Shown: positions 1 through 18,242 of the stretch, piece after piece
Position numbering within the stretch: position 1 is the first letter of the stretch
Layout: each line of letters starts with the position of its first letter
From: a virus
Lineage: Duplodnaviria; Caudoviricetes
Reading direction: 5' to 3' (one strand)
Virus record (IMG/VR): IMGVR_UViG_3300026187_000062
Span: 1-30,054 of that record
Length of the DNA stretch: 30,054 nucleotides
The notes under the pieces: generated by a model
What the model was told of the DNA's origin: nothing
The model's input: the letters and a program-made list of their open reading frames with translations, nothing else
Database searches by the model: none
Translations under genes and position numbers: made by a program

Positions 1-1
1 A

Positions 2-3000
2 TCTGGTTCATCTGGATCAAGTGGAAGCTCTGGAACAAGCGGTACTTCAGGCTCATCAGGTACTTCAGGTAGTTCAGGTACATCTGGATCATCAGGTTCA
101 AGTGGGACAAGTGGTTCTTCTGGTACATCTGGTACAAGTGGAAGTTCAGGTACAAGTGGAAGCTCAGGAACAAGTGGTTCAAGTGGTTCATCAGGAACAT
201 CTGGAAGCTCAGGCTCATCAGGAACATCAGGCTCATCAGGCACATCAGGTTCTTCAGGAACTAGTGGTTCATCAGGATCAAGTGGTTCAAGTGGAACGTC
301 AGGTATATCAGGTGTAGATGGTACTTCAGGTACCTCAGGCACCTCAGGTTCATCAGGAACTAGTGGTTCATCAGGCTCATCAGGCTCAAGTGGAACAAGT
401 GGTACTTCAGGTTCATCAGGAACAAGTGGTAGTTCAGGAACAAGTGGTACTAGTGGTTCTAGTGGAACTTCAGGAAGTTCAGGTTCATCTGGAACAAGCG
501 GTTCTAGTGGTTCATCAGGAACATCAGGTTCATCAGGAACTAGTGGTTCTAGTGGTTCATCAGGAACTAGTGGTTCATCAGGATCAAGTGGAACAAGTGG
601 TACTTCTGGTTCATCAGGAACATCAGGAACTTCAGGATCAAGTGGAACATCTGGTTCAAGTGGAAGTAGCGGTACATCTGGATCATCAGGTTCAAGTGGA
701 ACAAGCGGTACTTCAGGAACTTCAGGTTCAAGTGGAACAAGTGGCTCTTCAGGATCATCTGGAACTTCTGGATCAAGTGGTTCAAGTGGAACTTCTGGAA
801 CTAGTGGCTCATCAGGAACATCTGGTTCAAGTGGAACTTCAGGATCTTCAGGAACATCTGGATCATCAGGAACTTCAGGTTCTTCAGGATCAAGCGGAAG
901 TTCAGGAACTAGTGGTAGTTCAGGCTCATCAGGAACTAGTGGTTCTTCAGGAACATCAGGTTCATCAGGAACCAGTGGTTCTTCAGGAACATCAGGTAGT
1001 TCAGGCTCTTCAGGCACATCAGGCTCAAGTGGAAGTTCAGGAACATCAGGAACTTCAGGTACATCAGGCTCATCAGGTACATCCGGTTCAAGTGGTTCAT
1101 CAGGTACTTCAGGAAGCTCAGGTTCATCTGGAACTAGTGGCTCATCAGGTACTTCAGGTTCATCAGGAACATCAGGCTCATCAGGAACATCAGGTTCAAG
1201 TGGAAGCTCAGGAACTAGTGGTTCTTCAGGTTCTTCAGGAACAAGTGGTATAAGTGGAGTTGATGGTACAAGTGGAACATCTGGTACATCTGGTTCATCA
1301 GGCACATCAGGTTCAAGTGGCTCATCAGGCACTTCAGGTACATCGGGTACATCAGGTTCAAGTGGAACTTCAGGAAGCTCAGGTTCATCAGGAACTAGTG
1401 GCTCTTCAGGTTCAAGCGGAACATCAGGTAGTTCAGGAACATCAGGTTCTTCAGGTACATCAGGAAGCTCAGGCTCAAGCGGAACCAGTGGTTCTTCAGG
1501 TAGTTCTGGAACCTCTGGTTCAAGTGGAACTTCAGGAAGTTCAGGTTCATCTGGAACAAGTGGTAGTTCAGGTTCATCTGGAACAAGTGGCAGTTCAGGA
1601 ACTTCAGGTTCAAGTGGTACCTCAGGTTCATCAGGCTCAAGTGGAACATCAGGTTCATCAGGCTCAAGCGGAACATCAGGTTCATCAGGAACTAGTGGTT
1701 CTAGTGGAACCTCAGGTTCAAGTGGAACTTCAGGTTCTAGTGGATCAAGTGGTACATCAGGATCAAGTGGTTCTAGTGGTACATCAGGTTCATCAGGAAC
1801 ATCAGGTAGTTCAGGAACAAGTGGTACTAGTGGTTCAAGTGGTACTTCAGGAAGCTCAGGTTCATCTGGAACAAGTGGTTCCAGCGGTTCATCAGGCACA
1901 TCAGGTTCAAGTGGTACTTCAGGCTCAAGTGGAACATCAGGTTCATCAGGTTCTTCAGGAACTTCAGGTTCTAGTGGTTCATCTGGAACTAGTGGCTCTT
2001 CAGGTACATCAGGCTCTTCTGGAACATCAGGTTCAAGTGGAACAAGTGGTTCATCTGGCTCATCAGGTACTTCAGGCTCATCAGGTTCATCAGGAACTAG
2101 CGGTTCATCTGGAACTAGTGGTTCATCAGGAACATCAGGAAGCTCAGGAAGCTCAGGAACATCAGGTTCATCAGGTTCAAGTGGAACTAGTGGTATAAGT
2201 GGTGTTGATGGTACTTCAGGAACAAGTGGAAGTTCAGGTACTTCAGGAAGCTCAGGAAGCTCAGGAACTAGTGGTACTAGTGGAAGTTCAGGTACATCTG
2301 GCTCATCTGGTACATCAGGATCAAGTGGTTCATCTGGAACTAGTGGTACTAGTGGAAGTTCAGGAACTAGTGGTTCTAGTGGAACTTCAGGTTCTAGCGG
2401 TTCATCTGGAACTAGCGGCTCAAGTGGAAGCTCAGGAACTAGCGGTACTTCAGGAACATCAGGCTCAAGCGGAACATCAGGTAGTTCAGGAACATCAGGA
2501 AGTTCAGGCTCAAGTGGAACAAGTGGTTCTTCAGGTAGTTCAGGAACAAGCGGTTCTTCAGGAACATCAGGTTCTTCAGGAACATCTGGTTCATCAGGAA
2601 CATCAGGAAGCTCAGGTTCATCAGGAACCAGTGGTTCTTCAGGTAGTTCTGGAACTTCAGGGTCAAGCGGAACATCAGGTAGTTCAGGAACATCAGGTAG
2701 TTCAGGAACATCAGGAAGCTCAGGTTCATCTGGAACTAGTGGTTCATCAGGAGCATCAGGCGCTTCAGGAACTTCAGGAACTTCAGGAACATCAGGAAGT
2801 TCAGGCTCAAGTGGAACAAGTGGCTCTTCAGGTTCATCAGGAACATCAGGCTCAAGCGGAACATCAGGTAGTTCAGGTACCTCAGGTTCATCAGGAACTA
2901 GTGGTTCTTCAGGCTCAAGTGGAACTAGTGGCTCATCAGGTTCATCAGGAACATCAGGATCAAGTGGAACAAGTGGATCCTCAGGAACTTCAGGCTCATC

Positions 3001-4783
3001 TGGAACTAGTGGTTCTTCAGGCTCAAGTGGTACTTCAGGAGCAACAGGTTCTCCAGGAGTTCCAGGTACTTCAGGAACAAGTGGCTCATCAGGAACAAGT
3101 GGCTCATCAGGAACAAGTGGCTCATCAGGTTCATCAGGAACAAGTGGTTCATCAGGTTCATCAGGAACTAGCGGTTCATCAGGAACTAGTGGTTCATCAG
3201 GAACATCAGGAAGCTCAGGCACCTCAGGTTCATCAGGCTCAAGTGGTACTTCAGGAGCAACAGGAAACCCAGGAGTTCCAGGTACTTCAGGAACTAGTGG
3301 CTCATCAGGTTCAAGTGGAACAAGTGGTAGTTCAGGTTCATCAGGAACATCAGGAACATCTGGTTCATCAGGTTCATCAGGAACTAGTGGCTCATCAGGC
3401 TCAAGTGGGACAAGTGGTTCATCAGGTTCATCAGGAACATCAGGATCAAGTGGAAGTTCAGGAACAAGTGGCTCATCTGGCTCAAGTGGAACAAGTGGCT
3501 CATCTGGCTCAAGTGGAACAAGTGGTAGTTCAGGTTCATCAGGAACATCAGGAACATCTGGTTCATCAGGTTCTTCAGGTACATCAGGTTCATCTGGTTC
3601 ATCAGGAACATCAGGTTCAAGTGGTTCTTCAGGAACTAGCGGAACATCAGGTTCAAGTGGTTCTTCAGGAACTAGCGGAACATCAGGTTCATCTGGTTCA
3701 TCAGGAACATCAGGAGCAACGGGTTCTCCAGGAGTTCCAGGTACTTCAGGAACAAGTGGTAGTTCAGGTTCATCAGGAACATCAGGATCAAGTGGAAGTT
3801 CAGGAACAAGTGGTTCTTCAGGTTCAAGTGGAACAAGTGGTACAACTACTATAACTAACAACACAAATGATCGCGTATTAACAGCTACAGGTACAGCTAC
3901 TATTAATGGTGAAGCAAATTTAACATTTGATGGATCTTCTCTTAAGGTAGGAAGCGGTGCTTCAGCAACAGCTACTTTATCTGTAAAAGGAGGAGGTACA
4001 ACATCATCAACTAAAAACTTTGTAACAGAAACAGGAAACGGTACCACTATAATGGACTTCAGAGACGGAACTTATGCCTTCTTTGGATGTGGTCAAACAG
4101 GTGGATCTGCTTCTGGATTTATATTTCAATGGGAGGGTTCAACAACCTATACACAGTTTGCCGGGTATAACTACGGTAATGGTTCTAGTCCAAGTTACAA
4201 TCCTTTGTTATTAGATACTGATACAGCAGGACGTGATCAAGGTGTATTTGTAGGATATGATGTTACAGGTAACACTCCTCCGGCATCAACAGAATTTGCT
4301 GTTAGAGGTACAGGAACAACGTCTGCTACCTACTGTGCTCAGTTCGTTACTGATAATAGAAGTATTATTATGGCTATCAGGAATGATAAAAGAGTAGGTT
4401 TAGGGACCACAACTCCGAGTTATCCATTACATGTAGCCTTTGTTGAATCAGGTAATTCAATATATGCCTCAGGTGATATTATAGCATCTTCAGATATTAG
4501 AAAGAAAAAAGAAATTCAAATAATTAAAAATGCTATAGATAAAATTAAACAAGTTAGAGGTGTTACTTTTATAAAAACTGATACTGATGAAACTGTAAGA
4601 AAAATGGGAGTTATTGCTCAAGAAATACAAAAAGTAGCTCCAGAAGCAGTAGCTACAGATGCTGAAGGGTATTTATCAGTAGCATATGGAAACTTAGCAG
4701 GGCTATTAATTGAAGGTATCAAAGAACAACAAAACCAAATTGACGAATTAAAACAAGAAATAAATAAACTAAAGAATAAATAA
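2..4783 (+). CDS. Giant Ser/Thr-rich collagen-like tail/virion fibre with C-terminal peptidase S74 intramolecular chaperone (5'-truncated, >1590 aa)
   Basis: Frame +2 reads SGSSGSSGSSGTSGTSG... from nt 2. It continues through TTTITNNTNDRVLTATGTATINGEANLTFDGS into the 4052..4783 ORF of the track, which is in the same frame. The C-terminus SDIRKKKEI...RGVTF...MGVIAQEIQKVAPEAV...LSVAYGNLAGLLIEGIKEQQ plus coiled coil is the S74 autocleaving chaperone (from ~4490). Confidence 0.92.
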   Translation, partial: SGSSGSSGSSGTSGTSGSSGTSGSSGTSGSSGSSGTSGSSGTSGTSGSSGTSGSSGTSGSSGSSGTSGSSGSSGTSGSSGTSGSSGTSGSSGSSGSSGTSGISGVDGTSGTSGTSGSSGTSGSSGSSGSSGTSGTSGSSGTSGSSGTSGTSGSSGTSGSSGSSGTSGSSGSSGTSGSSGTSGSSGSSGTSGSSGSSGTSGTSGSSGTSGTSGSSGTSGSSGSSGTSGSSGSSGTSGTSGTSGSSGTSGSSGSSGTSGSSGSSGTSGTSGSSGTSGSSGTSGSSGTSGSSGTSGSSGSSGSSGTSGSSGSSGTSGSSGTSGSSGTSGSSGTSGSSGSSGTSGSSGSSGTSGTSGTSGSSGTSGSSGSSGTSGSSGSSGTSGSSGTSGSSGTSGSSGTSGSSGSSGTSGSSGSSGTSGISGVDGTSGTSGTSGSSGTSGSSGSSGTSGTSGTSGSSGTSGSSGSSGTSGSSGSSGTSGSSGTSGSSGTSGSSGSSGTSGSSGSSGTSGSSGTSGSSGSSGTSGSSGSSGTSGSSGTSGSSGTSGSSGSSGTSGSSGSSGTSGSSGTSGSSGTSGSSGTSGSSGSSGTSGSSGSSGTSGSSGTSGSSGTSGTSGSSGTSGSSGSSGTSGSSGSSGTSGSSGTSGSSGTSGSSGSSGTSGSSGSSGTSGSSGTSGSSGTSGSSGTSGSSGSSGTSGSSGSSGTSGSSGTSGSSGTSGSSGSSGTSGSSGSSGTSGISGVDGTSGTSGSSGTSGSSGSSGTSGTSGSSGTSGSSGTSGSSGSSGTSGTSGSSGTSGSSGTSGSSGSSGTSGSSGSSGTSGTSGTSGSSGTSGSSGTSGSSGSSGTSGSSGSSGTSGSSGTSGSSGTSGSSGTSGSSGSSGTSGSSGSSGTSGSSGTSGSSGTSGSSGTSGSSGSSGTSGSSGASGASGTSGTSGTSGSSGSSGTSGSSGSSGTSGSSGTSGSSGTSGSSGTSGSSGSSGTSGSSGSSGTSGSSGTSGSSGTSGSSGTSGSSGSSGTSGATGSPGVPGTSGTSGSSGTSGSSGTSGSSGSSGTSGSSGSSGTSGSSGTSGSSGTSGSSGTSGSSGSSGTSGATGNPGVPGTSGTSGSSGSSGTSGSSGSSGTSGTSGSSGSSGTSGSSGSSGTSGSSGSSGTSGSSGSSGTSGSSGSSGTSGSSGSSGTSGSSGSSGTSGTSGSSGSSGTSGSSGSSGTSGSSGSSGTSGTSGSSGSSGTSGTSGSSGSSGTSGATGSPGVPGTSGTSGSSGSSGTSGSSGSSGTSGSSGSSGTSGTTTITNNTNDRVLTATGTATINGEANLTFDGSSLKVGSGASATATLSVKGGGTTSSTKNFVTETGNGTTIMDFRDGTYAFFGCGQTGGSASGFIFQWEGSTTYTQFAGYNYGNGSSPSYNPLLLDTDTAGRDQGVFVGYDVTGNTPPASTEFAVRGTGTTSATYCAQFVTDNRSIIMAIRNDKRVGLGTTTPSYPLHVAFVESGNSIYASGDIIASSDIRKKKEIQIIKNAIDKIKQVRGVTFIKTDTDETVRKMGVIAQEIQKVAPEAVATDAEGYLSVAYGNLAGLLIEGIKEQQNQIDELKQEINKLKNK
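5..3841 (+). repeat. Degenerate 9-bp coding tandem repeat GGN-(TCN/AGY/ACN)-(TCN/AGY), at least 426 units
   Basis: Gly codons at 5, 302, 1247, 2192, 2750, 3038, 3254, 3713 and 3839 all fall in the same 9-nt register. Variation is almost entirely synonymous or Ser/Thr at position X. Confidence 0.95.
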
Positions 4784-4785
4784 TT

Positions 4786-5133
4786 ATGGGAATTCAAGCA
4801 ACAGGTTCATTTACGTATAATAACGCCAGTTATGATGCTCCTTATTTTAGAATTACACCTTACCTAGCTGCTACTGGTGATAATATCCCAGTAGAGACTA
4901 GAATGTATAGAGACTACTCTACTTTTGTAACAAGTTCAATACCTGCATTAGGTAGCGGAGACACACATATAACCTCTATAGGGTTTAATATAACCGGTTC
5001 AGCTCCAACTAATGCCTCAGGTTCAAACGTTACAGATAAGTATCTATATTGGGTTAGTTCAGAAATAATTAATCAATTAGAATCTATGTCTCCAAGTACT
5101 ACATTTAATATTACTAATATAACAGTAGATTAA
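4786..5133 (+). CDS. Small putative virion/fibre-associated protein
   Basis: 115-aa ORF 2 nt after the fibre stop; S/T/N-rich with TGS/SGS motifs. Confidence 0.65.
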
Positions 5134-5135
5134 GT

Positions 5136-5804
5136 ATGGCTGTACCATCTTCAAATATTAAAATAAATGGAGACATTTATAATGAAGCTAACGGTGGTAC
5201 AAGTACAGTTGTTAGTTTTGAAGATTTAGCTTCTTATGATTGGAGTCAAGGACCTAGTGGGGATAGTACAATTTCTTATAATGGATGGGGTCAAAGCGGA
5301 AACGCAGGAGCAAATAGAATATACGGACTATCAGTAAATACCTCAGGACCTTTTCAAGTAGCAGACTTTGCAGGATTAACTTACTTTTATGAAAATTCCT
5401 CTTATAAAATAGGAGCAAATGTTAATAATAACTACCCCCCTTCAACACCTCCTGATCCCCCTAACGATATTGATGTTACTATAACATTCTACGATAGTAA
5501 CGGAAGTTACTCATACGCCCAAGGAAATTCAGGCGGTGTTTCTGAAGGAGGAGGTAATACAAATTTTGATGTTACTAGCGGCGGTGGTAGTGAGCCAATC
5601 CTAGCAGTAGGATATTGGGAAATTGAAGTTTTTGCGAACGGCTTTGGCAGCTGTGATATAAACATTAATGGAACCGCAGTTGTAACAGGAGGAGCCCTCG
5701 GTCCAGGATCTACTACATTTAACTGGGGAAGCTACCAATCTGTAAATGCAGCTTCTACTGGTCAAGGTTATGACGGTTTTTATGTAGAAGTAAATGCTTC
5801 TTAA
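5136..5804 (+). CDS. Putative fibre-tip/adhesin-like virion protein
   Basis: 222 aa, G/S/N-rich, predicted beta-rich. The N-terminus [21 protein letters not shown]...QVADFAG resembles the short module often found in genes just downstream of S74-bearing fibres. Contains a Pro-rich linker PPSTPPDPP. Confidence 0.55.
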
Positions 5805-5810
5805 AACATA

Positions 5811-5842
5811 TTTGGTTATTTAAAATAATTTTATTATATTTA
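5811..5842 (+). promoter_or_regulatory. Putative host-type (Bacteroidota -33/-7-like) promoter TTGG-N19-TATATT for the glycan operon
   Basis: TTGG at 5812-5815 and TATATT at 5835-5840. The same 19-nt spacing occurs at 17120, 27124 and 28888. Confidence 0.6.
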
Positions 5843-6943
5843 ATGGTAATGTATGGTGATTTACTTCTTGTTGTTGATGCTTATTTATCTAATAAAGAAA
5901 GAGCAGAAGCTTGTTTAAATCTTATAAACCAACTTAAAGAAATTCTCCCTGAGTATGAGATTCTTTTAATTAATAAATCAAAAGAAAGTTATGGTTTAGA
6001 AAAACAAGTAGACCATTATTTTAATTATGGTAAGAGTTTTTTAGTAGGATATCCTCCTGAAGACATAATATCAAATGAAAATTATGAACTTCCTTATGTA
6101 TATGCTGGTAATGATCAAGGAGTATGTGAAAATTGGTTACCACTTAAAGGAATATCAGATCATGTAGCTAGTGTATATAATAGTTTTATTATGGCTTCTA
6201 ATTTAACCAAAATGTTAGGTTATAATAAACTATTTAGGGTAGAATATGATACTATATTTGATAAAGATGAACTTTTAGATATAAAAAAAGATTTACAAAA
6301 AGATTGGGAGTATTTATTTTATGGTAAAAGACAAGAAGGAAAATGGGCTAAACCATGGCATTACCTAATAGATGTTCATATATGTGGTTACTCACCAGAT
6401 TTATTTAATGGTTTCACACTTGTTAAAAATGATGATGAATATTGGAAATTATGTAATAAAATAGATTATTTTGGTAAGTGGATTGAATATGTTATCTCTC
6501 ATGTTTTAGAATATCAACTAAAGGAAAAAGAAATTAAAGGTATTTGTTATGAGGGATTTTGGTATGATTTATTTCCTAAAACCCAATTTGATATCATTAG
6601 TGGTTCTGGTGGATGGATTGATAAATGGAAATCAATGCCTAAAATTTGTAAAGTTAGTTATGATCAAGGAATAACAGAGGTAACAAATGAATTTACTTTG
6701 TTTTACTGGAATGATCAAGAATCAGATTTAACTATTAAAACTAAAATATATGATAATGATACTTTAATTTATGATTTTGATATAACTTTAAAAAATAATT
6801 ATACTTATATAGAAAAATTTCCTTTAGAAAAAGAACTTAGGATAGAAAAAACTAATATTATTAAGGGAAATATAGAAGAATACACTGAATATATTTCACC
6901 CCAAACCATTGCCCAGCATAATACAAGATTCATGTATAAATGA
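5843..6943 (+). CDS. Putative glycosyltransferase (GT-A-like) with C-terminal beta domain
   Basis: N-terminal LLVVDAY...EILLI Rossmann-like strands and YNKLFRVEYDT (DxD-like ExD). Paralogous to the next gene and lies in a glycan-modification context. Start may be 5849. Confidence 0.55.
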   Translation: MVMYGDLLLVVDAYLSNKERAEACLNLINQLKEILPEYEILLINKSKESYGLEKQVDHYFNYGKSFLVGYPPEDIISNENYELPYVYAGNDQGVCENWLPLKGISDHVASVYNSFIMASNLTKMLGYNKLFRVEYDTIFDKDELLDIKKDLQKDWEYLFYGKRQEGKWAKPWHYLIDVHICGYSPDLFNGFTLVKNDDEYWKLCNKIDYFGKWIEYVISHVLEYQLKEKEIKGICYEGFWYDLFPKTQFDIISGSGGWIDKWKSMPKICKVSYDQGITEVTNEFTLFYWNDQESDLTIKTKIYDNDTLIYDFDITLKNNYTYIEKFPLEKELRIEKTNIIKGNIEEYTEYISPQTIAQHNTRFMYK

Positions 6944-7941
6944 AACCAATAATTATAATATCTGCTTATTGTCCTGATGATGAAAGAAAACAAATGTTAA
7001 CTAATTGTGTTAACTCATTACAATCATTAAGAAAGGATTTTGATATTTTAATATCAACTCATGCTTATGTTCCTGAACATATAGCTAAAAAAGTAGATTT
7101 TGTTTTTTATGATGCTAATAATGATTTAATATATGATTGGGATTTAATTAATACTCCTTGGTTTTCACCACATGAAGGATTAACTATAGTTTCTTCATTA
7201 GTATCTAATTTTAGTACATATTCAGCTTGCAATAGAATAATTATGGGTGGTTTAGGTATAGCTAAAAATTTTGGATATAAAAAAGCCCATTATATTGATT
7301 ATGATACTATTATTAATGATCCTTCTGAATTTTATGACAATAATATTTTGTTAGATAATTATGTAACTGTTCAATATAAAAAAGAGTATAAAAACTTTGA
7401 AATGAATGTTGATGGAGGTGTAGGAGTATTTCAAGCTATAAATTTAGATAAAGTAAATGATGTATTTACAACATATAATGAGAAAGAATTATTAAAAATA
7501 TTAAAAGAAGCTCCTTATAAAACTAATGAAATAATATATCAAGATCTTTATAAGTTAGATAATGAAAAAATATTATACAAAGATTGGAATATTCTCTTAA
7601 ACCAAGGAAATATATTTAATCAATCTATTAACACTCAAAAAGATGATTTAAATGATTGGACTGTTCCTTATTATGATACTAAAACAAATAAAATAAATGT
7701 TATAGCTTGGAATTCTAAAAAAGATTACCCTATTAATGTTAGTTTTATTGTTAACCAAGAAAAAATTATAACATTAAATAATGTTAATAAATTTGAATGG
7801 AAAATAGATGAAGTAGATGATATTAATAATATTAATGAAATTCTAATTATAGTTGATAATAAAATAAAAAACCATATAACCATAGATACACCAGAACTCA
7901 AAGAAAAGTTTATTAGAAACAATCAAGCCCAATATAGTTAA
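6940..7941 (+). CDS. Putative glycosyltransferase (GT-A-like), paralogue of upstream gene
   Basis: IIIISAY...DILISTH...VDFVFYD...GYKKAHYIDYDT (DxD motif). ATGA overlap with the upstream stop. Confidence 0.6.
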   Translation: MKPIIIISAYCPDDERKQMLTNCVNSLQSLRKDFDILISTHAYVPEHIAKKVDFVFYDANNDLIYDWDLINTPWFSPHEGLTIVSSLVSNFSTYSACNRIIMGGLGIAKNFGYKKAHYIDYDTIINDPSEFYDNNILLDNYVTVQYKKEYKNFEMNVDGGVGVFQAINLDKVNDVFTTYNEKELLKILKEAPYKTNEIIYQDLYKLDNEKILYKDWNILLNQGNIFNQSINTQKDDLNDWTVPYYDTKTNKINVIAWNSKKDYPINVSFIVNQEKIITLNNVNKFEWKIDEVDDINNINEILIIVDNKIKNHITIDTPELKEKFIRNNQAQYS

Positions 7942-7942
7942 A

Positions 7943-8782
7943 ATGATAAATGTAAGTTATGATAGAGATACTAATTCAACATTAGTAAAATTAAACAATT
8001 TAACCTTAATAAAAGAACATCTTCCTTTAAAAATTAAATTTAAAAATATTATTTCAGGAGAAATACATTATGAAGCTGAATTAATAGATAATAGCTGGGT
8101 TGAATGGAAAGGAGCTGAACAGATTACTGATGTTTTAGTATATTCTTCTACAGGTAAAATTCTTCATAAACATAAATGGGATGTAACTATTAATGGAGAT
8201 ATTCATGAAAAAATGTTATGGTATTATTTAAAAGGTAGACAATTACAAGGACTAAATTCTAATGGTTTAGTTATTGGTGCCCATGATGGAAGAAATGGAC
8301 ATTGGATATATCCTGTTAAAGAAAATTTAACAGATGCTACTTTAGTTGATGGAAGCGAAAAACAATTTCAAAATTTAAAAGAAAACTATTTTGATTCTCT
8401 TAATACAGAATTTAAAAATACTATTGTTACAACAGATGGATCTGATGTAGAATGGTATCAAGGTGGAGAAGGTTATACAGATACAGTAATACCTTCTGTT
8501 ATTAATGGATGGTTAGACTCCTCCCAAATAACTAAAACATATAGAAAAAGCATATCAATTAATGATTTAATAAAAAATAAAAATTATGATTGGTTACATC
8601 TAGATGTAGAAGGTTTAGATGGGGATTTAATTTTAGCTTTGGAATCTAAACCTAATTTAATAATTTATGAGGATGAAAATCTAAATGATTCAATAAAATC
8701 AAGACTTAAAAATTGGTTTTCAAAGAATAATTATACAATAGTTAAACATTCATGTAATATATTAGCAATAAAAAATGGGTAA
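7943..8782 (+). CDS. FkbM-like SAM-dependent methyltransferase with extra N-terminal beta domain
   Basis: LVIGAHDG (motif I), WLHLDVEGLD and PNLIIYE motifs typical of the FkbM family. Confidence 0.8.
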   Translation: MINVSYDRDTNSTLVKLNNLTLIKEHLPLKIKFKNIISGEIHYEAELIDNSWVEWKGAEQITDVLVYSSTGKILHKHKWDVTINGDIHEKMLWYYLKGRQLQGLNSNGLVIGAHDGRNGHWIYPVKENLTDATLVDGSEKQFQNLKENYFDSLNTEFKNTIVTTDGSDVEWYQGGEGYTDTVIPSVINGWLDSSQITKTYRKSISINDLIKNKNYDWLHLDVEGLDGDLILALESKPNLIIYEDENLNDSIKSRLKNWFSKNNYTIVKHSCNILAIKNG

Positions 8783-11074
8783 ATATAAAGTATATGGTCA
8801 TGGTTCTTACATTGGTAATACAGGTTATAATCACCATACTAGAGAATTTTTTAGGCAACTATATAAACACTATAATATAAAATTTAGAAATTTTACAATT
8901 GGATCATCATATAAAGGATCTATAGATAATCCTCATGATAATGAACTTTATTTAAATAAACAAGATAAAGAAATATTACACCAGCAAACACTTTGGACTA
9001 CTCCTCCTAATAGAAAAGATGAATTAATTTATACCTCTTATAATAATGACTTTGAACAAGATGTCAATATAGTTTTAGCAGAAACTAATCATCATTATTT
9101 TTATGATGAATATAAGGGACCTAAAATAGCTTATAATGTTTGGGAATCTACTTTACAACCTGATTACTTTTTTAACAAATTAAAAGAATTTGATGAATTA
9201 TGGGTACCATCAGAATGGCAAAAAGAATGCATGGTTAAACAAGGATATGATAGAGATAGAATCCAAATTGTACCTGAAGGAGTAGATGATAGTACTTTTT
9301 TTCCTGAAAAAGTTGATATATTAGATGAATATAAAGATGGTAGATTTAAATTTTTATTATTTGGAAGGTGGGATTATAGAAAAGGAGTAAAAGAAGTTAT
9401 AGAAACTTTTTTAAAAACATTTGATAAAAACGAACCCATTGATTTAGTAGTTTCTATTGAAATCCTTATGGCAAAGAAATTGATGGTTTTGAAACTACAG
9501 AAGAAAGACTTAAACATTTTGGATTAGATGATCCTAGAGTAAAAATATTACATTTTCCTTCTAGAGAAGATTATGTAAAATATCTTAAAACAGGACATGT
9601 ATTTGTATCTTGTGCTCGATCAGAAGGTTGGAATTTACCATTAATTGAAGCTATGGCTTGTGGTACCCCATCAATATATTCTGATTGTTCTGCTCAATTA
9701 GAATTTGCTAAAGGAAAAGGCCATCCTGTAAAAATATTAGGTGAAAGAAGAGCTAATCAAAATTCATATGCTAGATTTACAATGAGTGATTTAACAGGTA
9801 ATTATTATGAACCTGATTTTGAAGATTTATCTAGAGTAATGAAAGATGTTTATAACAATTATGAAAAATATAAACAAAAAGCAATTTTAGATTCTGAAGA
9901 AATTAGAAAAAAATTTAATTGGGAAAACATAGGTAAAATAGGAGATAAAGTTTTAAATAACTTTATGGAAAAATATAATTCTCCTAATTATCAATCCCCA
10001 AAAATAAAAAATAGAGTTGTTGTATCTTATGATGGTGGACCAAAAGTTGAAATTTTAGGTCCTGAAGAGAAAGAATATAAAGTTGAATTTTGTAACAATG
10101 ATGAAGTAATTTATAATGATGTTATAAAAAATAACATGTGGACTACTTGTGGTAGAAAATATTATACTGAGTGGACTATAAAAATTAATGGTAAAATAGT
10201 AGATAAATTCAATTTAAAAGGTAAAAGAGTAGTAATAAATTTAGATTCAAAATCAATAGGTGATACTATAGCTTGGGCTCCTTATGCTGTAGAGTTCGCT
10301 AAAAAACATGATTGTAAAGTATTATTAAGTACTTTTCATAATGATTGGTTTAGGGGTTTAGAAGAATATAAAGATATTGACTTTATTGAACCTGACACAC
10401 CTATGGGGTGTTATGCTTCTTATAAAATAGGTTGGTTTAGAGATGATAATGGTAAATGGGATAAATTTGACATGTACCCAAATCAAGTAAATTTAATTCC
10501 CTTACAACAAACAGCTACTGATATTTTAGGTCTTGATTATAAAGAAGTTAATCATGGTTTAAATTTTCAAGGAAAAGAAAAACCAATAGATAAAGATTAT
10601 ATTATTATAGCCCCTAATGCTACTTCAGGATGCAAAGAATGGAACTATGACTATTGGGTGTCTTTATCTAAACTTATTAAAGATTCAGGTTATGAAGTAA
10701 TTGTTTTAACCCAAAAACCATATTATATTAAAGGAGTTACTAATATATGGGGTGAATCTTTTTCTATAGTGGCTAATTATCTTTTACACGCTAAAGCATT
10801 TATAGGACTAGGCTCAGGATTATCATGGTTTAATTGGGGTTTAAATAAACATACTTATATGATTAATGGTTTCGCTCGTCCTGGACATGAATTTACATCT
10901 AACATAACAAGAATTTATAATGATAATATTTGTATATTTTGTTGGAATGATGAAGTGTTTACTTTTGATGCTGGAGATTGGGACTGGTGTCCTGTTTATA
11001 AAGGAACATCAAAACAACATATATGTCAAAAATCAATTACTCCTTTACAAGTATTTAATTCTTTAAAAATATGA
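8775..11074 (+). CDS. GT4 glycosyltransferase fused to Aah/TibC-like (BAHT) O-glycosyltransferase; interrupted by a 1-nt frameshift at ~9460 (restored length ~766 aa)
   Basis: The 8775 frame gives GT4 N-terminal motifs (YNVWES, DELWVPSEWQK, VPEGVD, FGRWDYRKG). The -1 frame opens at 9461 (NPYGKEIDGF...FVSCARSEGWNLPLIEAMACGTP, the GT4 E-x7-E motif) and continues into the 9653..11074 ORF. That ORF carries SIGDTIAWAPYAVEF, FIGLGSGLSW and CxxCWN...WCP...C. Confidence 0.85.
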
Positions 11075-11949
11075 GTATAGTTTATGTTGAATTGTTATCT
11101 AACTCAATAGGTGATACTATTGGTGTTATGCCTGTTCTTGAAGAATTTAGACAAACTAATTCGAATTTAATTGTTCGTATTAATCCTTTTTTTGAAAAGT
11201 TATTCATTAATTCTTTTCCTAACATAAAATATTATAGAGAGGGAATGGAATATGATAAACATTTAAAAATTGATTATGATTTTACTAAACCTTTACAAAC
11301 TGGTTTTGCTAATCAACTAGGATTTATAGATTGGGAATATAAAAGACCAAAAATTGATTCTTTTAAAAAAGAAAGACCTATAAAAAACAAATATGTAACT
11401 ATTAATATTCATTCTACATCTCAATTAAAATATTGGAATCATTTTAAAGGTAAAAAAATACAACCTGAATCACCCTATTGGAATGAATTATGTGGGATGA
11501 TTAGAAAATCAGGATATACACCTGTAATTACTGAAAAAGATGAAACTTTTGGTATTCCTCCTTTTAGAAATGGTTTACCTACAAAAGCAAATAAAAAAAC
11601 AGGAATATCATTAGAAGAAACTATAAATTATATAGAACACTCAGAATTTTTTATTGGCTTATCTTCAGGTCTATCTTGGTTAGCTCATGCCTTAGGCAAA
11701 CCTGTAGTTATGATTTCTAACTTTAGTGAAGATTGGCATGAAATGGATTTATCTATTCCTGACTATAAAAGAATAATAAATAAAAATGTATGTCATGGAT
11801 GTTGGAATTTAATTGGTAAAGAATTTGACTTTGAATATGAAGATTGGTATTGGTGTCCCAAACATAAAAATACAGATAGACAATTTGAATGCCATACCTC
11901 AATAACCCCAGAAATGGTTTATAATGAAATTAAAGATTGGTTAATATGA
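11071..11949 (+). CDS. Aah/TibC-like (BAHT, GT9-related) protein O-glycosyltransferase
   Basis: SIGDTIG (catalytic Asp position), YVTINIHSTSQLKYWN, FFIGLSSGLSWLAHALGKPVVMISNFS and iron-finger CHGCWN...WCPKHKNTDRQFECHTSIT. Confidence 0.88.
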   Translation: MSIVYVELLSNSIGDTIGVMPVLEEFRQTNSNLIVRINPFFEKLFINSFPNIKYYREGMEYDKHLKIDYDFTKPLQTGFANQLGFIDWEYKRPKIDSFKKERPIKNKYVTINIHSTSQLKYWNHFKGKKIQPESPYWNELCGMIRKSGYTPVITEKDETFGIPPFRNGLPTKANKKTGISLEETINYIEHSEFFIGLSSGLSWLAHALGKPVVMISNFSEDWHEMDLSIPDYKRIINKNVCHGCWNLIGKEFDFEYEDWYWCPKHKNTDRQFECHTSITPEMVYNEIKDWLI

Positions 11950-13013: not shown

Positions 13014-13688
13014 ATGAAACATTGGGAAAATTTTGATTGGGGAAGTTCTAATGATTGGTATAAAGAATGTATAGGTAAAGAAATCTTTGAACAAAAAATA
13101 TATGAAAGATTTTTTTCTGTTGAAGAAAATGATGTTGTAGTTGATATAGGAGCCAGTATTGGTATTTTTACTTATTCTATTTTAGATAAAAATCCATCAC
13201 ATGTTTTTTGTTTTGAACCAAGTTTAGAACAATTTCCTACTTTAATTAAAAATACATTAAATGGGTTTGTAACATGTATTAGTAAAGGTATTTCTGATAT
13301 AGATGATGTAAAAGTTTTAAATGATGTTTATGGTTATAATAATCAACCGTTAGAAGTTCATACTTTAAGATTTGATACATTTATTAAAAAATATAATATA
13401 GAAAAAATTGATTTTCTTAAAACAGATTGTGAAGGAGGAGAATATAATATTTTTAATATTGATAATTTAGTTTGGATTAAACAGAATGTTAAAAAAATTG
13501 TAGGTGAATTCCATCTAGAAACTCCAGAACAAAAACAACAATTTAAAGAATTTAGAGATGTATTTTTAAGATTGTTTAAAAAATATAAAGTTTATTCTGT
13601 AGATGGAGCTAATATTAAATGGGATTTATGGAATGACCATTTTATAGAATATTATAAACAAATAATTATTTATATAGATAATAGGTAA
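13014..13688 (+). CDS. FkbM family SAM-dependent methyltransferase
   Basis: DVVVDIGASIGIFT, VFCFEP, IDFLKTDCEGGEY and IVGEFH. Confidence 0.9.
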   Translation: MKHWENFDWGSSNDWYKECIGKEIFEQKIYERFFSVEENDVVVDIGASIGIFTYSILDKNPSHVFCFEPSLEQFPTLIKNTLNGFVTCISKGISDIDDVKVLNDVYGYNNQPLEVHTLRFDTFIKKYNIEKIDFLKTDCEGGEYNIFNIDNLVWIKQNVKKIVGEFHLETPEQKQQFKEFRDVFLRLFKKYKVYSVDGANIKWDLWNDHFIEYYKQIIIYIDNR

Positions 13689-14837: not shown

Positions 14838-16556
14838 ATGGCATCAACATTAATATCCCCTGGCGTACTCGCTATTGAAAATGATCAGTCGTTTATTACT
14901 CAACAGCCAGTTACTGTAGGAGCCGCAATTATCGGTCCAACTGTAAAAGGTCCTGTTGAAATTCCGACAGTAGTTACTTCTTATTCTGAATATCAAAACG
15001 CATTTGGTACTACATTTACTAGTGGTAGTAATGTTTACACTTACTTAACCTCTATTTCAGCTTATAATTACTTCGCAAATGGTGGAGAAAGTTTATTAAT
15101 AGCTAGAGTAGTATCTGAATCAGCAGATTGGACATCAGCAACAAATGCTCCTGATATCTCAGGTTCAACATCAGCTTCAGCTGCTTTTGTTCTTGAAACA
15201 CTTTCAGAAGGTGAAATTATGAACAGTGATTCAACAGAATCTTCTGATGGAACTTTACCTAGTGGTTCAAGTGATAATATTAGATGGGAAATTGCAAACA
15301 GTGATACTGACGCTGGTACTTTCTCTCTATTAGTTAGAAGAGGAGATGATGAACAAAATAATAAAGTTGTTTTAGAAACATGGACTGGATTATCATTAGA
15401 TCCATTCTCTGATAATTTTGTTTCTAGAGTAATTGGAGACCAAACATTAAATTATAACTCATCTAATAATCAAATTCAAATTTCAGGATCTTATCCAAAT
15501 AATTCAAGATATATTAGAGTTAAGGAAATTAATTTATTAACACCAAACTATTTAGATAATGCAGGTACAGCTAAATCAGAATTTACAGGTTCAATTCCAT
15601 TGAATGCTAGTGGTTCATTTAGTGGAGGTATTGGTTCATTAATTAGTACAACTCAAGGTAAATACTATGATAAAATAGATGGTAATACTCAAGGTTTATC
15701 AGGAAGTGATTATACTAACATGATTAGTTTACTTTCAAACCAAGATGATTATCAATTTAATGTATTAACTACACCTGGTTTATTTGATGATGTAAATACC
15801 CATACAGGACAAATTACAAATATTATCAATAATACTCAAAATAGAGGAGATAATATTTTTGTAATGGATTTAGCTTCATATGATTCAACAGTATCAGAAG
15901 TAACAACTCAAGCTGCTACTAGAAATACTTCATATGCTGCTTCATATTGGCCTTGGTTACAAACAGTAGATCCTGATACAGGAGCTAGAGTTTGGGTTCC
16001 AGCATCAACAATGGTTCCTGGAGTTTATGCTTATAATGATAGTGTAAGTGAGCCTTGGTTTGCGCCAGCAGGTATTAACAGAGGTGGTTTAACTACAGTA
16101 ATAAGAGCTGAACAAAAATTAACTCAAACAAATAGAGATGATTTGTATACTGGTAAAGTAAACCCAATTGCTACTTTCCCAGGAACAGGAGTTGTAGTGT
16201 ATGGTCAGAAAACATTACAAACTAGAGCAAGTGCTTTAGATAGAGTAAATGTTAGAAGATTGTTAATTGAACTTAAGTCTTATATTTCTCAAGTAGCTAA
16301 CAACTTAGTATTTGAACAAAATACAATTGCTACTAGAAATAACTTCTTAGCTCAAGTTAACCCATATTTAACATCAGTTCAACAAAGACAAGGATTATAT
16401 GCTTTCAGAGTAATAATGGATGATAGTAATAATACAGCAGATGTAATTGACAGAAACCAAATGGTAGGTCAAATTTATATCCAACCAACCAAAACAGCTG
16501 AATTTATTTACTTGAACTTCAACGTGTTACCAACTGGAGTAGAATTCCCACAATAA
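14838..16556 (+). CDS. Contractile tail sheath protein
   Basis: SPGV..E.D start, YWPW, PWFAPAGINRG, VNPIATFPG, GQKTLQ, ALDRVNVRRL, VFEQN and IQPTKTAEFI. Confidence 0.96.
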   Translation: MASTLISPGVLAIENDQSFITQQPVTVGAAIIGPTVKGPVEIPTVVTSYSEYQNAFGTTFTSGSNVYTYLTSISAYNYFANGGESLLIARVVSESADWTSATNAPDISGSTSASAAFVLETLSEGEIMNSDSTESSDGTLPSGSSDNIRWEIANSDTDAGTFSLLVRRGDDEQNNKVVLETWTGLSLDPFSDNFVSRVIGDQTLNYNSSNNQIQISGSYPNNSRYIRVKEINLLTPNYLDNAGTAKSEFTGSIPLNASGSFSGGIGSLISTTQGKYYDKIDGNTQGLSGSDYTNMISLLSNQDDYQFNVLTTPGLFDDVNTHTGQITNIINNTQNRGDNIFVMDLASYDSTVSEVTTQAATRNTSYAASYWPWLQTVDPDTGARVWVPASTMVPGVYAYNDSVSEPWFAPAGINRGGLTTVIRAEQKLTQTNRDDLYTGKVNPIATFPGTGVVVYGQKTLQTRASALDRVNVRRLLIELKSYISQVANNLVFEQNTIATRNNFLAQVNPYLTSVQQRQGLYAFRVIMDDSNNTADVIDRNQMVGQIYIQPTKTAEFIYLNFNVLPTGVEFPQ

Positions 16557-16570
16557 AAGTTTAAAGACAG

Positions 16571-16579
16571 AATATTTAT
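16571..16579 (+). promoter_or_regulatory. AATATTTAT putative late promoter
   Basis: Exact copy upstream of the tube gene. Confidence 0.6.
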
Positions 16580-16601
16580 AACAAGATAATAAATAAATAA
16601 A

Positions 16602-17090
16602 ATGGCAGTATTAGATCCAAACGAAATATTTTTCACCCAGTTTGAACCCAAAACCCCCAATCGATTCGTCATGCGTATCGATGGTATTCCAGCGTTTATG
16701 ATTAAGGGTGTTAACGCAGTAACATTATCACAACCAGAAATTGTACTTAATCATATAAACGTTTATAGAAAAGTTAAAGGTAGAACTACTTGGGGTGATA
16801 TTCAGATGACAATGTACGACCCAATTACTCCATCAGGAGCACAAGCTGTAATGGAATGGGTACGCTTGCATCACGAATCAGTAACGGGTAGAGATGGTTA
16901 TTCTGATTTCTATAAGAAACAATTAACTATTCAAGTTTTAGGACCTGTAGGTGATATCGTTTCAGAATGGTTACTTGAAGGTGCTTTCATTAAAGAAGCC
17001 AATTTCGGTGATTATAATTACGACACTGCTGATGCTGCTGTTAATTTAACAATGACAGTAGGTATGGATTACTGTGTACTAAACTTCTAA
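16602..17090 (+). CDS. Tail tube protein (T4 gp19-like)
   Basis: 162 aa directly after the sheath; FEPK..NRF, KGRTTWGDI, VMEW, DFYKK and WLLEGAF. Confidence 0.9.
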   Translation: MAVLDPNEIFFTQFEPKTPNRFVMRIDGIPAFMIKGVNAVTLSQPEIVLNHINVYRKVKGRTTWGDIQMTMYDPITPSGAQAVMEWVRLHHESVTGRDGYSDFYKKQLTIQVLGPVGDIVSEWLLEGAFIKEANFGDYNYDTADAAVNLTMTVGMDYCVLNF

Positions 17091-17114
17091 AAGAAGATAT
17101 ACTTTCCCACAAAG

Positions 17115-17143
17115 AGAGCTTGGTTTTTCCAAGCTCTTTTTTT
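17115..17143 (+). terminator. Intrinsic terminator after sheath-tube
   Basis: AGAGCTTGG-TTTTT-CCAAGCTCT 9-bp stem followed by a T run. Confidence 0.85.
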
Positions 17144-17157
17144 ATCTTAATATTTAT
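17120..17157 (+). promoter_or_regulatory. Overlapping TTGG-N19-TATCTT and AATATTTAT motifs upstream of the chaperone gene
   Basis: TTGG 17120-23, TATCTT 17143-48 and AATATTTAT 17149-57. Confidence 0.5.
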
Positions 17158-17184
17158 TACTATAAAAGTTATTAAAAACAGATT

Positions 17185-17925
17185 ATGAGCGAATTTAAAT
17201 TCCCAACCGAAGTTGTAGACTTACCTTCAAAAGGTCTTGTTTACCCTGAATCAAGTCCACTTTCTTCTGGTCAAGTAGAAATGAAATATATGACCGCAAA
17301 AGAAGAAGATATCTTAACTAACCAATCCTATATTACAAAAGGAGTAGTTTTTGATAAATTACTACAATCATTAATTACTGATAAAACAATTAAAGTAGAT
17401 GAGTTAATTGTAGGTGATAAAAATGCTCTTTTAATTGCCGCTCGTATTTTAGGATATGGTGCTGAATATAAATTTACTTATCTAGGTGAAGAACATTCAG
17501 TTAACCTAACTGATTTTGATGATAAAGAAATTGATACATCTTTATTTACTAAAGGTCAAAATAAATTTACTTACCAACTACCATCATCTAAAATTACATT
17601 AACTTTTAAATTATTAACTGGTAAAGATGAAAGAGTAATTGATGCTGAATTAGAAGGTTATAAAAAAATAAGTAAAAATGATGTACCTGAATTAACAACT
17701 AGATTAAAACAAATGATTATAGCTGTTGATGGAAAAGAAGATAAAGGTACTGTTCGTGATTTTGTAGATAATGCTTTTTTAGCTAGAGATTCTAGAGAAT
17801 TTAGAAAATATATTCAAGGTTTCCAACCAGATGTTAATACTAAAACAACTGTTACTTCAATAGATGGTCTAGAGGAGGAGATCGATGTACCTATCGGGCT
17901 TAACTTTTTTTGGCCTGAGTCTTGA
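17185..17925 (+). CDS. Tail assembly/baseplate hub chaperone (T4 gp26-like)
   Basis: PTEVVDLPSKG, MTAKEEDIL, GDKNALLIAARILGYG and terminal FFWP; lies between tube and tape measure. Confidence 0.8.
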   Translation: MSEFKFPTEVVDLPSKGLVYPESSPLSSGQVEMKYMTAKEEDILTNQSYITKGVVFDKLLQSLITDKTIKVDELIVGDKNALLIAARILGYGAEYKFTYLGEEHSVNLTDFDDKEIDTSLFTKGQNKFTYQLPSSKITLTFKLLTGKDERVIDAELEGYKKISKNDVPELTTRLKQMIIAVDGKEDKGTVRDFVDNAFLARDSREFRKYIQGFQPDVNTKTTVTSIDGLEEEIDVPIGLNFFWPES

Positions 17926-18208
17926 TAATGTTGCTCAAGTAAGAGCAGATATATTTTTACAAATACATGATATATGTTTTTGGGGTCAAGGTGGATATGA
18001 TTTTGATACTGTTTACAACTTACCTCTTTGGTTAAGAAAATTTATTTTAGCCCAACTTAGGAAACATTATGAAAAGGAAAGTAATAGTGATGAAAAAAAC
18101 ATGGAAACCACTTTACAAAACTTAAGACAACATAAAAACCAAAAATCAGAAATACAACAACGACCAAACCAAAAATTATTATATAAATCAGGGACATCTA
18201 AAAAATGA
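17885..18208 (+). CDS. Second tail chaperone ORF (T4 gp51-like), possibly expressed by frameshift from the upstream gene
   Basis: Overlaps the upstream gene by 41 nt across a T7 run; GGYDFDTVYNLPLWLRKF motif. Confidence 0.7.
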   Translation: MYLSGLTFFGLSLDNVAQVRADIFLQIHDICFWGQGGYDFDTVYNLPLWLRKFILAQLRKHYEKESNSDEKNMETTLQNLRQHKNQKSEIQQRPNQKLLYKSGTSKK

Positions 18209-18215
18209 TGTCCCT
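18190..18215 (+). terminator. Stem-loop at end of chaperone pair (terminator or processing hairpin)
   Basis: AGGGACATC-TAAAAAAT-GATGTCCCT perfect 9-bp stem; weak U tail. Confidence 0.55.
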
Positions 18216-18216
18216 T

Positions 18217-18225
18217 AATATTTAT
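18217..18225 (+). promoter_or_regulatory. AATATTTAT putative late promoter
   Basis: Exact copy upstream of the tape measure gene. Confidence 0.6.
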
Positions 18226-18242
18226 AATAAACTCATCTCCTA

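Follow-up and report, generated by a model that had tools for sequence, protein, structure and literature searches.

The window, that is, the whole stretch of 30,054 nt that was analysed, covers positions 1 to 30,054 of the IMG/VR virus record IMGVR_UViG_3300026187_000062 (Duplodnaviria; Caudoviricetes). This 30-kb record encodes sheath, tube, baseplate, gp32-like and UvsX-like genes. At its 5' end lies the subject of this analysis, a fibre gene in frame +2 that runs without stops from nt 2 to nt 4783, encodes at least 1,593 amino acids (aa) and is open at the contig end. The gene comprises the following features:

2..4783, plus strand: fibre gene, 5'-truncated by the contig end; its complete relatives have 4,182 aa (G001) and 4,507 aa (G028).
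5..3847, plus strand: 427 unbroken Gly-X-Y triplets, with Ser (53%) or Thr (43%) at X and Ser (97%) at Y.
302..2209, plus strand: three GIS-GVD marker cassettes, starting at nt 302, 1247 and 2192, at a spacing of exactly 105 triplets.
nt 3038, 3254 and 3713, plus strand: GAT-GxP-GVP cassettes, downstream of the GIS-GVD cassettes.
3848..4489, plus strand: non-repeat tip, similar to distal tail-fibre families (phrog_1980, phrog_1699, phrog_11011).
4490..4783, plus strand: Peptidase_S74 intramolecular chaperone with a Ser-Asp-x-x-x-Lys start, then a predicted coiled coil (Pfam and PDB match).

A sequence-only reading of this DNA had claimed a hidden, upstream-truncated gene in frame +2 with at least 426 in-register triplets, six Pro and three Asp, and had named in-frame stops as a refuting result. 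No such stop was found between nt 2 and nt 4783, and the counts were reproduced: the consecutive triplets number 426 through nt 3838 and, with a final GTT, 427. The window stalk is made up of 225 GSS, 184 GTS and 18 other triplets, hence Gly-(Ser/Thr)-Ser in 409 of 427. Ser is found at Y in 414 triplets, and Gly is found at X or Y in none. The six Pro amount to 0.7% of the X/Y positions, and the only charged residues among 1,281 are the three Asp. The exact spacing of the GIS-GVD cassettes is a trace of large duplications. The list of open reading frames (ORFs) did show the wrong frame, as had been claimed, and its VQEHL-rich ORFs were rejected as the real gene, being shadows in frame +3. Thus the observation of a long hidden Gly-X-Y gene is confirmed, and the interpretation first given to it is partly supported.

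Analysis of the codons revealed that bases 1 and 2 of the Gly codon are invariant in all 427 units, with a varying third base (1.47 bits), and that both Ser codon families, TCN and AGY, are used in the stalk. Not one unit contains a stop or has lost its Gly, though about 29% of single-base changes would produce either. Therefore, the pattern is not due to chance and is what selection on the protein would leave. The fibre gene of the window is real, very long and under selection. The antisense frame (-1) is also stop-free; as a gene it was rejected, since its openness is a by-product of codon usage.

Complete versions of the fibre were found in relatives. The C-terminus of the G001 fibre is 81% identical to that of the window fibre, and in the whole protein 1,249 unbroken triplets lie between an N-terminal domain of 126 aa and a tip of 309 aa. 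The G028 fibre has 1,406 unbroken triplets, and both of these stalks likewise have no Gly at X or Y. None of the fetched loci overlaps the 5' end of the window gene (no shared 70-mer). The sequence speaks against assembly-inflated length, which the sequence-only reading had also named as a refuting result: the longest exact in-register DNA repeat in the window is 65 bp and no 80-mer is repeated. Twelve loci were aligned base by base to G001, one of which (L132) is G001 itself. Among the 11 others, seven contigs, which may not be fully independent samples, are colinear with G001 across 1.6-10.7 kb with 0-36 mismatches; one of the seven, L126, has three register breaks within its 7 mismatches. 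Three more (L128, L129 and L133) diverge from G001 in order, and L001 mismatches it at 68 of 1,171 bases. Over the window repeat, the k-mer contigs of four runs break up and none spans the whole repeat. An artefact, either a length inflated by misassembly or the antisense frame as the true gene, would draw on these fragmented contigs, on a window contig that terminates within the repeat, on the three contigs of relatives that deviate in order and on the stop-free frame -1. However, the short exact repeats, the agreement of separate contigs up to 10.7 kb, the continuation of the plus frame into the conserved S74 domain and the fall of the variation on plus-frame wobble positions all argue against it, and we regard an artefact as highly improbable. 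In runs X1, X4, X6 and X9, 1,633-7,381 short contigs per run were placed on window positions 1-3847. Their summed depth on the repeat, which is summed over organisms and is not a copy number, is mostly ten- to at least hundredfold above that of the flanking genes, and this excess suggests similar repeats in many other genomes of those waters.

At a rise of 0.286-0.29 nm per residue, the window stalk as a triple helix would measure 366-371 nm, in agreement with the earlier estimate of about 365 nm, and the stalks of G001 and G028 would reach 1.07-1.22 µm. A rule of thumb of about 0.15 nm per residue gives a tail of about 126 nm from the 838-aa protein, which was placed as the tape measure by the gene order of Flavobacterium phage immuto and has no family match of its own. 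The fibres of the complete relatives would therefore be about 8-10 times the implied tail length. The length estimate of the sequence-only reading is supported for the window piece but falls short for the whole fibre, as the complete relatives are about 3 times longer than the window piece. Its comparison with type I collagen also holds, the stalk having more triplets, but was over-weighted: prokaryotic collagen-like chains are reported to reach about 2,000 triplets, with interruptions (PMC11923368), so that stalk length alone is no record. The type of N-terminal domain seen in G001 (L042:12813-13190, minus strand) is also the start of proteins that differ in their C-termini and in triplet number, from 0 to more than 1,100, which makes the stalk look like a modular spacer whose length can vary. 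AlphaFold2 modelled this domain, from 18 sequences, at a pLDDT of 44. At the starts of many unrelated structural proteins of these phages, with repeats or with none, its first twelve or so residues are found again, as is an internal motif; this recurring start is possibly a shared anchoring module.

The S74 domain at the C-terminus exceeds the Pfam cut-off, and the sole PDB match of the fibre C-terminus is S16 gp37 (6F45, 3 chains). The trimer that the sequence-only reading had taken from this tip agrees with the match; we infer the trimeric state from the family. For the Ser/Lys pair of the start motif, we presume the role that it has in such domains. S16 gp37 resembles the window fibre in its C-terminal self-cleaving chaperone and coiled coil, whereas its stalk is beta-structured and that of the window is a Gly-X-Y chain many times longer. 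A trimeric phage fibre with a Gly-X-Y stalk and a C-terminal trimerising domain is also known from EPclA-D of E. coli prophages (PMC3368898). These differ in being stabilised by Pro and charged residues, in having been unglycosylated as recombinant protein, and in a longest collagen domain of 322 aa (PMC3368898). Collagen helices are described as nucleating at the C-terminus and zipping towards the N-terminus (PMC11923368), and in collagens of prokaryotes and viruses, stability is known to come from Pro and from Lys-Asp/Glu pairs (PMC11923368, PMC3368898). The window fibre has Gly at every third residue in a long register and a terminal trimerisation domain, as collagens do, but it lacks stabilisation by Pro/Hyp or by Lys-Asp/Glu pairs. 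With 0.7% Pro and three charged residues, both usual stabilisers are nearly absent.

A single chain could instead fold into a polyproline-II (PPII) or polyglycine-II bundle, compact or ribbon-like and possibly ice-binding, as in the snow-flea antifreeze protein or S16 gp38. Gly-X-X periodicity is common to such bundles (PMC12227593), and Ser and Thr abound in the repeat. However, the helices of natural bundles mostly have fewer than 3 turns and are linked by turns (PMC12227593), and extra Gly is typical of them, whereas 427-1,406 triplets follow each other here without a break and without a second Gly. The unbroken register therefore fits a triple helix and not a bundle, and the domain at the C-terminus belongs to a kind that forms trimers; we consider the bundle very unlikely. 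For 240 repeat residues modelled as a single chain, AlphaFold2 gave a pLDDT of 28, too low to inform on the fold. A PDB match to a 'spindlefibril/axialfibril' (8ZXL) was rejected, as the model sequence of that entry, GAP/GSQ/GLQ, is unlike this repeat.

A cluster of enzyme genes lies between the fibre gene and the tail genes, with three identified transferase domains and two possible ones:

5843..7941, plus strand: two paralogous proteins (366 and 333 aa) with DxD-like motifs, matching each other by hhalign at 95%, E 4.6e-8.
8775..11074, plus strand: GT4 and TibC-like fusion (about 760 aa in relatives), split here by one missing base.
11071..11949, plus strand: second TibC-like glycosyltransferase, without the N-terminal barrel; TIGR04414 at 191 bits, below the cut-off of 200.
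13014..13688, plus strand: FkbM-family methyltransferase (family match), at the end of the cluster.

In the first TibC-like copy, the ORF at 9653-11074 matches TibC (4RAP, E 1.7e-39) and scores 215 bits with TIGR04414, above the cut-off. Both copies retain Asp110, Thr226, Lys230, Trp305 and the four iron-finger Cys. Of 58 homolog sequences, nearly all retain these catalytic residues and Cys, and 16 have Ser in place of Thr226. The missing base lies near nt 9460 (9455-9465). The fusion is unbroken in run X5 and in contig L155 (99.9% identical), these being the informative sources, as three of four runs lack cover at nt 9460; the split is thus likely an assembly error or a local variant. Searched as GT-A enzymes, the 333- and 366-aa proteins gave no Pfam or PDB match, and their identity as glycosyltransferases is unconfirmed.

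The window enzymes share family, catalytic residues and iron-finger Cys with the TibC/AAH heptosyltransferases (TIGR04414; PDB 4RAP, 4RB4; PMC4358343). Dense, Ser-selective O-glycosylation of a repetitive substrate encoded nearby, as described for TibC/AAH, is parallel to what we propose here (PMC4358343). TibC is reported to act on Ser and not on Thr (PMC4358343). Y is conserved across the 22 tabulated phage loci, each of which has Ser there more often than any other residue (0.53-0.98), with X varying and even being Leu or Ile in the phage fragment G006. No autotransporter family matched any of the 29 window proteins scanned from this 30-kb genome fragment.

The association between enzyme and repeat was tested in two samples. 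From 33 phage loci, 30 records were searched (L046, L136 and L144 were left out), and the repeat query was positive in 12 of the 14 records with a TibC-like gene, compared with 5 of the 16 without (Fisher p 0.004). This sample is biased: one or the other trait had led to many of its records, and the records are mutually related and for the most part fragmentary. The query can also match other Gly-X-Y types. The second sample, bacterial bins, is more independent. The best 80 of 623 genome-collection matches entered a FastTree tree of 135 proteins, with at least 10 G-(S/T)-(S/T) triplets within 10 kb as the criterion. One bacterial clade (support 1.0) has such repeats beside 0 of 64 proteins, and the rest beside 12 of 17, some of the 17 resembling phage contigs inside bins. 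In a gammaproteobacterial clade all 8 proteins have repeats nearby, and the tracts seen there are located in small lipoprotein-like ORFs. Judged by these neighbourhoods, such repeats accompany the TibC-like branch both in phages and in unrelated bacteria. The gammaproteobacterial bins, several of them Arenicellales or Acidiferrobacterales, have the TibC-like gene beside G-S/T-S tracts (L190-L196, L199). Six of these tracts were read, and most of the lipoprotein-like ORFs end in acidic tails; the loci are candidates for a bacterial lipoprotein O-glycosylation system.

A structural counterpart may be the glycofibril TLP-3. In the main text of the CryoSeek preprint, on which the comparison rests and whose supplements may bear on it, TLP-3 is a 4-nm fibril from a freshwater pond, built from three strands of tripeptide repeats (10.1101/2025.09.30.679562). 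In each repeat, two residues are small and the third is an O-glycosylated Ser/Thr, on which eight sugars were modelled; the rise is 2.9 Å and the twist 105.6°, and interlocking glycans stabilise the assembly (10.1101/2025.09.30.679562). The 3.5 Å map has no determined hand and no sequence and was modelled as Gly-Gly-Ser; the authors state that sequence searches gave no useful match and that the source was not found (10.1101/2025.09.30.679562). The word 'collagen' is absent from this main text (10.1101/2025.09.30.679562). The small-small-Ser/Thr tripeptide of TLP-3 resembles the Gly-(Ser/Thr)-Ser of the window stalk. Its glycosylated residue stands directly before the Gly that provides the N-H donor for the bond between chains, a place that corresponds to the Y position, and its origin too is aquatic. 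The TLP-3 twist falls between the 7/2 and 10/3 collagen values. In its helical values, which lie in the collagen range, and in the Ser/Thr before Gly, TLP-3 resembles a Y-glycosylated collagen type. The acceptor of the canonical collagen hydrogen bond is the X carbonyl, whereas in TLP-3 the modelled acceptor is the Ser3 carbonyl. TLP-3 also comes from a freshwater pond, while the best-matching runs of the window phage are labelled as estuary, marine, seawater and soil. In addition, Gly-x-Ser/Thr repeat proteins of other organisms could be its source. We tentatively raise the possibility that phage fibres of this kind are the source or the structural class of TLP-3; such fibrils would be micrometre-long, proline-free collagen helices held together by a branched glycan on every third residue, a Ser. 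The phage would build this glycan through a pathway of its own that begins with TibC, and the fibrils would be released in large amounts into natural waters. In the literature searched, the terms TLP-3 and glycofibril occur together only in the CryoSeek preprint, and a term search of a companion CryoSeek paper (PMC12956863) found no mention of TLP-3. No paper on this phage fibre, or tying TLP-3 to phages or to collagen, was found in a search outside which most subscription journals lie.

Taken together, we propose with moderate confidence that the fibre is a phage-glycosylated, proline-free triple helix of the collagen type, which would start to fold at the S74 tip and act as a long tether for capturing the host. 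The gene, its register and the S74 tip are shown by the sequence. As in other members of its family, the S74 chaperone would gather three chains at the C-terminus and then cleave itself. The TibC-like enzyme would add a sugar to the Ser at Y, which the GT4, 366-/333-aa and FkbM proteins might extend or methylate. The resulting glycan shell, comparable to that of TLP-3, would act as stabiliser instead of hydroxyproline and salt bridges. The 126-aa N-terminal domain may anchor the fibre to the virion, and the gene order suggests the neck region: in G001 the fibre gene follows the major capsid, PhoH-like and head-tail adaptor genes (the PhoH-like gene being named by sequence and immuto gene order) and precedes the enzyme cluster and the sheath. 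Finally, a tether of about 1 µm would hold the tip far from the particle for host capture, which is the least supported step; function and attachment site are the weakest parts of the proposal. The sequence-only reading had already suggested that a glycan on the Y Ser replaces hydroxyproline. For this predicted sugar and fold, there are now a candidate TibC-like enzyme, the co-occurrence and the structural precedent of TLP-3, which demonstrates that three-strand tripeptide helices with a glycan coat, a glycosylated Ser/Thr and otherwise small residues occur naturally.

Several points weigh against this proposal. Sugar, fold, particle and host are predictions from sequence. In TibC, Arg286 is reported to select the donor adenine of ADP-sugars (PMC4358343); it is Val and Thr in the two window copies and Arg in only 4 of the 58 homolog sequences. 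They are thus best described as TibC-like O-glycosyltransferases and not as strict heptosyltransferases. The window enzymes further differ from TibC/AAH in the GT4 fusion of one copy and the missing barrel of the other. The known TibC substrates are beta-helical loops of autotransporters and not Gly-X-Y chains; the substrate proposed here is a fibre assembled in the cytoplasm. The bacterial tracts are short (18-50 triplets), show no trimerising domain and equally fit glycosylated flexible linkers. The TibC-positive phages L062, L064, L164 and L167 have mostly Pro-rich G-P-Q repeats nearby, and G006 has Y-Ser fibres but no TibC-like gene in its 68-kb fragment. As for the glycan, vent-worm cuticle collagen and Bacillus BclA share with our proposal the idea of O-glycosylation at Y in place of hydroxyproline, but have Thr at Y and typically Pro at X, whereas the window stalk has Ser at Y and nearly no Pro (PMC11923368, PMC8968730). 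The sequence-only reading had invoked the vent-worm precedent; the published peptide evidence for stabilisation is for galactosylated Thr in Gly-Pro-Thr and not for Pro-free Ser. The collagen regions of Bcl proteins are reported at up to 1,158 residues, compared with 3,747-4,218 in the complete phage relatives.

The stalk might also be a triple helix without sugar, held by its length, the C-terminal clamp, cool water and hydroxyl-water networks, with the enzymes acting instead on DNA, on the host surface or on virion proteins other than the fibre. Without glycosylation, EPclA melts at 42 °C (PMC3368898), and the repeat-free relatives immuto and G005 also carry GT2 and GT4 genes, so that glycosyltransferases as such are not specific, a further point against our proposal. 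However, unmodified prokaryotic collagens, as far as described, depend on Pro and charged pairs, both missing from this stalk, and the TibC-like branch and the repeat go together in phages as well as in bacteria. We therefore judge a sugar-free helix to be unlikely. Another arrangement would be three loose, mucin-like glycosylated chains joined only at their trimeric ends, forming a flexible tether or a glycan shield. The short bacterial tracts beside the same enzyme branch, where a trimer domain is not visible, are in line with it, as are the low triple-helix propensity of Ser and the many short register breaks of the phage relatives G024 and G025. In disordered chains, however, there would be no need to keep Gly at every third residue through 1,249-1,406 triplets, free of indels and of Gly at X or Y, and we consider loose chains rather unlikely. 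The proposed glycosylated triple helix combines known kinds of system, namely phage collagen fibres, glycan-stabilised collagen and TibC-type protein glycosylation; what is new is the unbroken micrometre-scale stalk and a testable candidate source for TLP-3. If correct, dense Ser glycosylation on an almost Pro-free chain would be a third way of stabilising the collagen helix, beside hydroxyproline and salt bridges. Stalk and enzymes would lie in one phage cassette, open to laboratory reconstruction, and TLP-3 could be assigned a gene and a set of enzymes and be put to a test. Glycosylation of virions, which is reported for the capsids and tail tubes of mycobacteriophages (PMC10877033), would be extended to fibres about 8-10 times the implied tail length.

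Two further features of the window frame the enzyme cluster:

4786..5804, plus strand: two small genes (115 and 222 aa), which also follow the fibre gene in G001.
14838..20759, plus strand: contractile-tail module with sheath, tube, baseplate hub and the 838-aa protein (family matches, gene order).

The 115- and 222-aa proteins are possibly tip adhesins or assembly factors, which is unconfirmed. For the 222-aa protein as a gp38-like adhesin, there is a weak Atlas lead (0.76; Gp38_N in 12% of members), and a 32-sequence profile found nothing in PDB or Pfam. By tail sheath, the closest cultured phage is immuto (Immutovirus; 51%), which shares the tail gene order but has neither the repeat nor a TibC-like gene, and from this match a Bacteroidota host is a guess. 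The next sheath match is Mel-JY01, recorded from Microcystis. Among 22 listed runs, nine contain at least half of the sampled words (three soil, three estuary, two marine and one seawater); two RNA runs contain only 7%.

Mel-JY01 (L173, PP395634.1) has both a TibC-like domain and G-T/S-S repeats, as the window does, although its tracts total 202 triplets in the stretch examined. Its region at 2-8430 has repeat frames, among them a 1,016-aa plus-strand frame beneath genes annotated on the minus strand, and the TibC-like domain sits in a gene labelled FkbM methyltransferase; the genes of that region are probably mis-annotated. The literature search found no paper naming Mel-JY01. As a cultured phage with both parts, it is a ready test system. 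At 18.5-36 kb of G006 (L177, L123), three G-L-S/G-I-S fibre genes surround an 887-aa GT2-GT4 fusion, possibly a second, independent pairing of enzyme and repeat. Pro-containing G-P-Q/G-A-I stalks occupy the same region in related phages (L062, L064, L164, L178), and G027 mixes Pro-containing and Pro-free stalk types within one protein. In addition, the megaphage W03 (LR756501.1, 735 kb; L180, L181) has at least five giant ORFs (1,665-3,488 aa) with G-T-S-rich stalks, at about 103-123 kb and 400-417 kb, and a TibC-like gene in which Arg286 is kept.

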